The notes below the pieces were generated by a model that did not search any database, had not been told where the DNA came from, and worked only from the letters and a program-made list of their open reading frames with translations. A program made the position numbers and the translations under genes. 64,000 nt of DNA from Enterobacteria phage KhF3: the sequence record KT184315.1; one strand, 5' to 3'. This document shows positions 50,409 through 50,928 of this stretch, piece after piece (within the stretch, counting starts at the first letter, position 1; every line of letters begins with the position of its first letter).

Positions 50409-50621
50409 TTTTGAATCTCCAGTTTAGGATTTTATTTAGTGGGGAAGGTCATTCCCTCCCCGTTGATGTAAATATTAGATAACCACGTTCAAAGAGTCAA
50501 TAAAAATTTTAAAAATATTTTTGGCAAAACTGTAATGAAACGGGTGCGCACGACTACCACAAAACAGAACGCAAATCAAGAATTATTTTTCAATCCGCTA
50601 CAAATTTTTCTATTGACTTTT

Positions 50622-50660
50622 GGGGAGAGGGGGAGTAAGAGGGGGAGAGGTGTTGGGCTG
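50622..50660. repeat. Purine-rich G-tract cluster (potential G-quadruplex)
   Basis: GGGGAGAGGGGGAGTAAGAGGGGGAGAGGTGTTGGGCTGG in an otherwise AT-rich genome. Confidence 0.5.
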
Positions 50661-50663
50661 GCT

Positions 50664-50860
50664 GTCTATAAAAACCTACCTGCACAATTCTAAAATGATT
50701 TTTCTTGCCCGACCTGAGCGGAGTCTGCACGTTTTGAAAATGAAAAAGCTCTTTGGAGATTACCTGCACAGTTTGAAAATGAATTTTCTCTTTGGAGTTC
50801 AAAATTCTCTCTACAGATTTCTCTACAGAACTCTACCTGCACAATTCTGAAATGAAAAAG
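50664..50860. repeat. Four degenerate tandem repeats (~45 bp) with core CTGCACA(A/G)TT(C)T(A/G)AAAATGA
   Basis: Copies near 50677, 50722, 50764, 50835; CTCTTTGGAG also repeated. Confidence 0.55.
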
Positions 50861-50928
50861 CCCTCCTTACCTGAAAAATTTACCAGATAAGAAAGGCTTA
50901 GGCTATTGTGAATATCCTACAGAGTTTC

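Follow-up and report, generated by a model that had tools for sequence, protein, structure and literature searches.

Short repeats of one sense close to a promoter are a feature of two kinds of described element, namely iteron origins of replication (e.g. F ori2, P1 oriR and lambda ori) and repeat-bearing RNAs such as the CsrB/RsmZ-type sponges and phage pseudo-ToxI. The T4 origin oriE combines an early promoter with iterons, and AAAU is the cleavage motif of ToxN-family nucleases. Felix O1-like phages find use in the typing of Salmonella, in biocontrol and in therapy, and Bas63 is emerging as a model phage; the transcriptional programme, replication origins and non-coding elements of the group are essentially unmapped. 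Here we analyse an intergenic gap of Enterobacteria phage KhF3 (record KT184315.1) within a stretch of 64,000 nt, referred to below as the window. The gap is exactly 520 bp long (50409-50928) and is bounded by the ATG of a 62-aa gene and the stop codon of a macro-domain gene, both on the minus strand. A preliminary description of this DNA had reported 520 bp without a convincing open reading frame (ORF), and we can confirm both the length and the lack of a coding signal in three frames. As a terminator and a promoter/hairpin-leader cassette are ordinary parts of the gap, the ~350 bp in between are the part that needs explanation. This middle part is an uncharacterised conserved repeat module, which does not yet amount to a discovery. 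We tentatively favour, with less than even confidence, the reading that it is an independently transcribed plus-strand non-coding RNA with linear repeats that serve as protein-recognition sites.

Three components make up the module of ~350 bp: an A/T-rich block with a plus-strand -35 hexamer at its end, a 54-nt segment that can be replaced (the G-tract in this phage), and four linear motifs of 19-29 nt. The motifs follow a common consensus: cTGCAC, seven semi-conserved nucleotides, AAATGA, a run of five A or five T, and a pyrimidine-rich tail. Searching the window with the pattern CTGCACARTTYTRAAATGA (up to 3 mismatches), we found 4 matches where 0.16 are expected, all of them in the gap and on the plus strand (50680-50698, 50725-50743, 50764-50782 and 50837-50855); no shuffled sequence gave 4. 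Core similarity over 19 nt is 84-100%; the spacers between the cores are unrelated to one another. Thus the four cores of the preliminary description are real, but its ~45-bp tandem arrangement is not: the core starts are spaced 45, 39 and 73, Tandem Repeats Finder reported no tandem array, and the second copy departs from the proposed core at 3 positions. The repeats are dispersed direct repeats. The first of them, R1 (CTACCTGCACAATTCTAAAATGATTTTTC, 50676-50704), is almost invariant, and its tail TTTTTCTTGCC(C/A)GACC is kept in Erwinia phages too. R2 (GAGTCTGCACGTTTTGAAAATGAAAAAGC, 50721-50749) and R3 (TTACCTGCACAGTTTGAAAATGAATTTTC, 50760-50788) come next, and some relatives (e.g. BPSELC-1) have R3 deleted and are left with three copies. 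Between R3 and R4 lies a 12-bp tandem duplication on the plus strand (TCTCTACAGATT / TCTCTACAGAAC, 50808-50831). R4 (CTACCTGCACAATTCTGAAATGAAAAAGC, 50833-50861) abuts the terminator hairpin, and its A-run doubles as the terminator T-tract on the opposite strand.

The array is conserved far beyond the immediate relatives of the phage. The window belongs to a Felix O1-like myovirus of the genus Felixounavirus, the 801 bases around the gap being 99% identical to LF82P2, XTG1, ekra and ASO1A. This region is matched by 287 phage records, named mostly for E. coli, Salmonella, Shigella, Citrobacter and Erwinia phages (a few are oddly named, i.e. a 'Staphylococcus' and a 'Campylobacter' phage). In all Ounavirinae examined the macro gene is followed by a gap of 459-528 bp, and the repeat module invariably lies directly downstream of that gene. 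The position of the array is conserved in Felixounavirus, Mooglevirus, Suspvirus and the Erwinia Kolesnikvirus, with 3-4 copies that always have the same sense; their spacings are 45/39/73 in Felixounavirus, 45/41/75 in Mooglevirus and 39/37/37 in the Erwinia phages. Among 21 sequences sharing the spacing of the window, 15 of 92 core sites are variable vs 29 of 90 spacer sites. Only a few short stretches still align as DNA between the window phage and the Erwinia phages, and the array is among them. The order of elements is common to all lineages: an early promoter on the minus strand comes first, then an A/T-rich stretch, a promoter-like site on the plus strand, a replaceable or G-rich segment, the repeats, a hairpin and the 3' end of the macro gene. 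The array occurs once in a complete 87.6-kb relative. Scanning viral contigs for the two-motif pattern returned only Ounavirinae, apart from false positives in tail-fibre genes, and scanning metagenomes returned close relatives plus two somewhat more divergent phages of the same layout. In 185,579 species genomes the same scan picked up 31 stretches, none from an enterobacterial genome, and the module had no BLAST match in E. coli genomes or plasmids.

Upstream of the repeats lie two A/T-rich features. The first is a conserved tract (TCAATAAAAATTTTAAAAATATTTTTG, 50497-50523), recognised by its conservation and low duplex stability; the 30-mer 50491-50520 is the 9th least stable of the window, yet it is also the upstream part of a promoter. 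The second is a 47-bp block (ATCAAGAATTATTTTTCAATCCGCTACAAATTTTTCTaTTGACTTTT, 50575-50621, plus strand), which is nearly invariant among 30 unique Felixounavirus, Mooglevirus and Suspvirus sequences, is more conserved than neighbouring coding sequence and ends in a plus-strand -35-like hexamer. We also observed TTGATT-17-TAGTCG on the minus strand at 50547-50581, preceded by TGTGG, which mirrors the plus-strand TTGACT..TGTGGTAG(C/T)C of relatives that lack the G-rich segment (L014, L019 and L096). The resulting imperfect 35-bp inverted repeat surrounds the invariant block, and the last base of its '-10' element is G in nearly all lineages. It is possibly a pair of divergent weak promoters or a pair of binding sites. 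The gap shows no inflection in the GC-skew profile, and nothing in it convincingly matched DnaA, IHF, CRP, sigma-54, MotA-box, EcoKI or Chi sites when compared by eye.

The proposal of a plus-strand RNA builds on this anatomy. As the array is single-copy, deeply conserved and non-coding, with linear motifs that lack secondary structure, repeated protein-recognition sites are the natural interpretation. A putative plus-strand promoter (TTGACT, a 17-nt spacer and TAAGAG; 50613-50641) was recognised from the sequence and by comparison with relatives. Its -35 hexamer TTGACT (50613-50618) and the 40 bp upstream are nearly invariant. In the variant without G-tract the -10 element is a TG-extended TAGCCT or TAGTCT, and in the Erwinia phages the homologous site, TTGACG-18-TATACT, matches at 10/12 positions and is called by the promoter scan. 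Downstream of the Erwinia site follows TGTTGAGGGGCTGGCT, recognisably the same as TGTTGGGCTGGCT in the window, with TGTTG(A)GGGCTGGCT as the shared sequence. Two findings from the literature fit in here. In Felix O1, reverse transcription PCR (RT-PCR) gave a maximum at 25 min for the ORF14 interval, which lies in the module, and at 5 min for ORF13 and ORF16 (PMC3185647). In Bas63 the equivalent of the gap (64064-64570) lies inside a segment of ~46-66 kb described as uniformly non-essential in a genome-wide insertion screen with four laboratory strains (10.1101/2024.10.10.617714). The gap region is therefore probably non-essential, which speaks for an accessory role and makes a sole replication origin less likely. 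The neighbouring genes are of accessory or counter-defence types (rIIA/B, polynucleotide kinase, macro domain, and salvage of nicotinamide adenine dinucleotide).

We thus infer plus-strand transcription, action at the RNA level and a protein partner. The module would form a transcription unit of its own on the strand opposite to the neighbouring genes. Its product would be an unstructured non-coding RNA of ~210-260 nt, running from ~50648 to the hairpin near 50900, in which the four repeats may act as single-stranded recognition or cleavage sites for one protein, so that the RNA would work as a multi-site sponge or decoy. Such a function would be accessory and dispensable in the laboratory, and would not require the G-tract. 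We prefer an RNA to a nucleoprotein array on DNA because the spacings change between genera and helical phasing is not kept, because conservation extends over the promoter-like site, the array and the hairpin together, as a single oriented unit, because the interval is transcribed with another timing than its neighbours, and because the neighbourhood is of an accessory/counter-defence kind.

A number of observations weigh against this proposal. The plus-strand site of the window scores only 8/12; its -10 element TAAGAG matches at 3/6 positions and lacks the critical final T, and the promoter scan called the site neither in the window nor in Bas63. The terminator hairpin has no U-tract on the plus strand, so the 3' end of the RNA is uncertain. 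The RT-PCR of the ORF14 interval was not strand-specific and could reflect read-through from ORF13, and a search of the literature found no strand-specific transcriptome of any Felixounavirus. An Rfam search of the whole window at the gathering threshold returned only tRNAs elsewhere, and for the gap at E<=10 it returned noise, with no hit at E<7. Folding the RNA of both strands against shuffled sequences gave z = +0.12 and, because of the terminator, -1.0, and consensus folding of 75 unique repeat units and of the whole alignment revealed nothing beyond the terminator. Neither folds nor covariation nor Rfam lend the RNA positive support. Finally, direct repeats of one sense with conserved cores equally resemble DNA iterons or operators, and there is no known partner protein for them.

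As a more specific version, a decoy RNA carrying the CUGCAC and AAAAUGA repeats could titrate, or be cut by, a host RNA-targeting defence nuclease or RNA-binding protein; we consider this form of the idea distinctly unlikely. If true, such a decoy RNA would be an RNA-based counter-defence element, functionally like pseudo-ToxI and unrelated to it in sequence. Two related candidates were tried and rejected. A ToxI-like antitoxin finds no plus-strand gene, i.e. no toxin, after the array and no ToxI match in Rfam, and a ToxI mimic finds no host locus in E. coli genomes, in plasmids or in the enterobacteria among the 185,579 species genomes.

The strongest competitor of a plus-strand RNA is an array acting as DNA, in which iteron- or operator-like sites would bind a phage or host protein and build a nucleoprotein complex beside the A/T-rich region and the promoters. 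This complex could be a secondary replication origin, comparable to T4 oriE or to the iteron origins of plasmids, a transcriptional control element or an insulator. The DNA-level reading shares most of its evidence with the RNA reading and ranks below it; we regard it as possible, if doubtful. The four repeats of 19-23 bp have the same sense and hold their blocks TGCAC and AAAATGA at a fixed distance of 7 bp, the adjoining A/T-rich tract belongs to the least stable 30-mers of the window, promoters lie on either side, and each genome has one array. The layout resembles that of F ori2, where an A/T-rich region is followed by four TGTGACAAATTGCCC iterons, and some copies (e.g. CCTGCACAAATTG in Mooglevirus) share CTG..ACAAATTG with the F iteron. 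The phage also encodes a possible binding partner: a plus-strand gene at 986-1315 specifies a 109-aa protein with a Cro/C1-type helix-turn-helix (HTH_3, E=6e-10), called a 'transcriptional regulator' in relatives, which we consider a candidate DNA-binding partner. However, the spacing of the repeats is irregular and differs by genus, so that no constant helical phase is kept; no initiator gene is adjacent and the replication genes are far off. In addition, the motif has no relation to the F iteron in its second half, the skew profile has no inflection, and the non-essential Bas63 segment speaks against a sole origin.

A further possibility is that the middle of the gap has no dedicated function, and is a spacer of decayed duplications of terminator tails and promoter cassettes, kept only by recent common ancestry or as a linker for recombination between gene modules. 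The terminator tail is overlapped by R4 and recurs at other terminators; the region is probably dispensable in Bas63; and since the gene on the left flank is not the same in all relatives, the gap can be seen as a mosaic junction. Such a spacer would be hard to reconcile with cores that are less variable than the sequences between them and persist to the Erwinia phages, where most flanking DNA no longer aligns, with the presence of 3-4 copies in every lineage, or with a block at 50575-50621 that is more conserved than adjacent coding sequence. We therefore consider it unlikely.

The preliminary description had drawn attention to the four G-tracts at 50622-50660 and to a possible G-quadruplex (G4). 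These runs (GGGG at 50622-50625, GGGGG at 50629-50633, GGGGG at 50641-50645 and GGG at 50655-50657; C-tracts on the gene strand) are indeed striking: the 40-mer from 50622 contains 26 G, compared to 19 in the runner-up of the window and a maximum of 22 over 200 shuffles, and it is also the G-richest 40-mer of the complete 87.6-kb relative. A G4 switch, in which the tract would fold as DNA or RNA and control transcription or replication here, is supported by this richness. Applying the strict rule (four G-runs of 3 or more, separated by loops of 1-7 nt), we found that 13 of 34 unique relatives, close ones included, have the canonical pattern, but the window itself does not, because a change from GGGG to GGTG leaves it with a third loop of 9 nt. 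A G-rich run precedes the repeats in the Erwinia phages as well, but it comprises only three G-runs. Moreover, the tract is polymorphic within the genus: ~85 database records carry it, vs ~140 that carry an unrelated 54-nt segment of equal length. Both variants occur in E. coli and Salmonella phages with no correlation to the host, and their surroundings are conserved. As ~140 relatives without the G-tract have kept the repeats and the block, the conserved function does not need it, and a G4 switch appears quite improbable to us. The earlier regulatory interpretation is right in general and wrong in specifics; the conserved element is not the G4.

Three independent GenBank assemblies break or degrade exactly at the G-tract, i.e. 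ON210138 (EC106), MN850610 (Andreotti) and KT184313 (KhF1). The breakpoints are equivalent to 50499-50655 of the window and consist of breaks, a loss of ~200 bp or N-rich, homopolymer-garbled sequence: EC106 is without ~200 bp beside the tract, Andreotti opens with 15 unrelated bases, and KhF1 has an N-rich, homopolymer-garbled start that is clean from the G-tract on and overlaps its own end by 372 bp. These assembly breaks suggest polymerase or sequencing trouble at the G-tract template, as a structured template would give, and this is a further, indirect point for a G4.

Annotators have placed zero to five 'hypothetical proteins' in the gap, on either strand and in differing frames; the Bas63 'genes' bas63_0096 and bas63_0097 are in fact the repeat module. 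One or two small proteins could be encoded, either ORF14 on the minus strand or ORFs of the bas63_0097/0096 type on the plus strand, with the repeats as a peptide repeat LHxxKM. In favour are the open frames on either strand, the RT-PCR product of the ORF14 interval in Felix O1, and one plus-strand frame in which the division of the motif into conserved and variable parts follows codon boundaries (CTG CAC nnn nnn AAA ATG). However, an excess of variable third codon positions is absent from all three candidate frames: variable sites by codon position are 11/11/13 for the plus-strand frame 50535-50693, 11/13/16 for the plus-strand frame 50695-50850 and 9/8/7 for the minus-strand frame 50802-50590 (the old ORF14). 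The last 390 nt of the macro gene, which served as positive control, gave 22/8/59 (26 unique relatives, a set that overlaps with those used for the gap frames without being identical to them). The frames are broken by stops or by indels that are no multiple of 3 in Mooglevirus, the Erwinia phages, VpaE1 and Wec174-type phages, the start codon of the plus-strand ORF-A is absent from Felix O1 itself, and none of the ATGs in the gap is preceded by a Shine-Dalgarno sequence. R4 is out of frame with R1-R3 because of the spacing of 73. Given these tests we treat the codon-boundary fit as coincidence; judged by sequence comparison the repeat module is non-coding, and small proteins are highly improbable. 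The spurious nature of the ORFs that read through the repeats, as suggested before, is therefore upheld; as for a conserved expressed gene in relatives, ORF14, although once annotated and amplified by RT-PCR, lacks conservation as a gene and was dropped from RefSeq.

That the gap is a physical genome end or packaging site has next to no probability, since the EC106 and Andreotti records that start inside the G-tract and the self-overlap of KhF1 are assembly artefacts, and since the 581-bp direct terminal repeat of Pr103Blw, determined by PhageTerm (PMC8303462), maps to 43703-44293, ~6.4 kb off, and already refutes a terminus in the gap for this phage, the only Felixounavirus found with published, annotated ends. 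As the physical ends map to 43703-44293, the window is a permuted, collapsed representation of the genome. This interval contains 16 same-strand copies of YTGTTAR (0.44 expected), with 3 inverted copies (CTTAACA) at one end.

Two other explanations of the repeats were discarded. The first, tandem promoters, came from phiEa21-4 (L009 925-990), where the repeat tail TTGCCA and the next AAAAT lie 17 bp apart and create two promoter-like sites with 9-10/12 matches; the promoter scan called this TTGCCA-17-(T/G)AAAAT arrangement in the Erwinia array, but it is not conserved, the Felixounavirus spacing being 25 or 16 with poor hexamers. The second was a mini-array of clustered regularly interspaced short palindromic repeats (CRISPR), against which stand the degenerate repeats, 'spacers' of ~20-54 nt that are conserved between genera, and the lack of a host match.

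The right end of the gap is formed by the rho-independent terminator t13 (50849-50899, minus strand) of the transcription unit that runs from rIIA to the macro gene. It has a stem of 17 pairs (50858-50899) followed by the tail TTTCATTTC, and shows the expected features, i.e. a G+C-rich hairpin and a T-run on the transcribed strand with a gene upstream. It is annotated in ASO1A, XTG1 and KhF1 and has already been published as a terminator of Felix O1 (Table 2, PMC3185647). The sequence ...CTTTTTCATTTCAG... of its tail is found again at two terminators, one lying upstream of the gene that ends at 53218 and the other being t5 of Felix O1. Elsewhere in the genome, a hairpin at 43076-43113 is 89% identical to the macro-gene terminator of Erwinia phage phiEa21-4 (L009 1017-1053). 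The genome paper on this phage reportedly describes a dispersed, precisely conserved terminator, and the hairpin at 43076-43113 may be that element.

At the left end, the promoter scan found an early promoter with sigma-70 features on the minus strand (TTGACT-17-TAATAT, 50472-50500), which is an annotated promoter in ASO1A. It is followed by the 5' leader of the 62-aa gene (50409-50469, minus strand) with the hairpin GGGGAGGGAATGACCTTCCCC (50441-50461) and the Shine-Dalgarno sequence GGAG. The 57-nt leader element is a dispersed repeat with further copies at 46898, 47763, 45343 and 45015, and promoter and leader together (50409-50500) are one copy of a cassette, referred to below as type A, that precedes at least four other small early genes. 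Between 44700 and 50500 nearly all small early genes have one of two ~100-bp cassettes upstream, namely the genes ending at 45005, 45334, 46266, 46602, 46892, 47399, 47757, 48469, 49074, 49455, 49925 and 50408. Type A consists of TTGACA-17-TAAATT and the 5' hairpin GGGGAGGGAATGACCTTCCCC, and type B of TTTACA..GGGGCTTA-loop-TAAGCCCC.., which matches a 57-bp repeat noted in the Felix O1 paper.

Of the flanking genes, the macro-domain 'phosphatase' gene (50929-51714, minus strand; Pfam Macro, E=1e-7; PHROG 335 'phosphatase') corresponds to Felix O1 ORF13. The 62-aa early gene downstream of the gap (50220-50408, minus strand; PHROG 15633) is of unknown function, and the gene in this position varies among relatives. 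Further genes around the gap encode rIIA, rIIB, polynucleotide kinase, a spanin, NadV and phosphoribosyl pyrophosphate synthetase, and the surroundings are the accessory part of one long leftward transcription unit. The preliminary description had seen a control region at an early/late boundary, with the first early gene at 50408. A regulatory, non-coding region it is, with its terminator, sigma-70 promoter and conserved module, but not an early/late boundary, because both flanks are co-oriented in the one leftward unit and the transcripts of ORF13 and ORF16 both peak at 5 min (PMC3185647); 'first early gene' does not hold for the same reason. At 130-146 the window contains seven ambiguous bases (N) in four short runs.

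Very few non-coding stretches have stayed conserved between the phages of Salmonella and E. coli and those of Erwinia, and the gap is one of them. If its repeats prove to be a protein-binding platform of RNA or DNA, they would offer a handle on regulation, replication or counter-defence in the group. For annotation and assembly, the spurious ORFs of the gap should leave the databases, and the G-tract deserves attention as a recurrent cause of broken or degraded assemblies.

Compared with known systems, the ends and the middle of the gap resemble different things. The cassettes before the small early genes resemble the promoter-early stem-loop (PeSL) cassettes that are shuffled in T4-type phages: a promoter and a 5' hairpin leader, together a repeated cassette, occupy the leftmost 90 bp of the gap, and the gene behind it is swapped among relatives. 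This likeness covers only 50409-50500 and does not extend to the module at 50575-50860, which is single-copy. With the iteron origins (F ori2, P1 oriR, lambda ori) the module has in common four direct repeats of ~19-23 bp, an A/T-rich neighbour, nearby promoters and a single site, and it contains, as they do, at least three direct repeats of 17-23 bp in the same orientation. It differs from them in its irregular, unconserved spacing, in the lack of an adjoining initiator gene, in its distance from the replication genes and in its probably non-essential location, and from F ori2 also in the second half of the motif. Compared to ToxI, the repeats are degenerate and irregularly spaced instead of near-identical units of 34-45 nt, and compared to CsrB/RsmZ the module lacks hairpins with GGA in the loop. 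With the CsrB/RsmZ-type sponge RNAs and phage pseudo-ToxI, however, the module shares a promoter, here a putative one, several short repeats of the same sense, a hairpin, the absence of an ORF and a place in an accessory, counter-defence gene neighbourhood; and each of its cores contains AAAU, the motif at which ToxN-family nucleases cleave.

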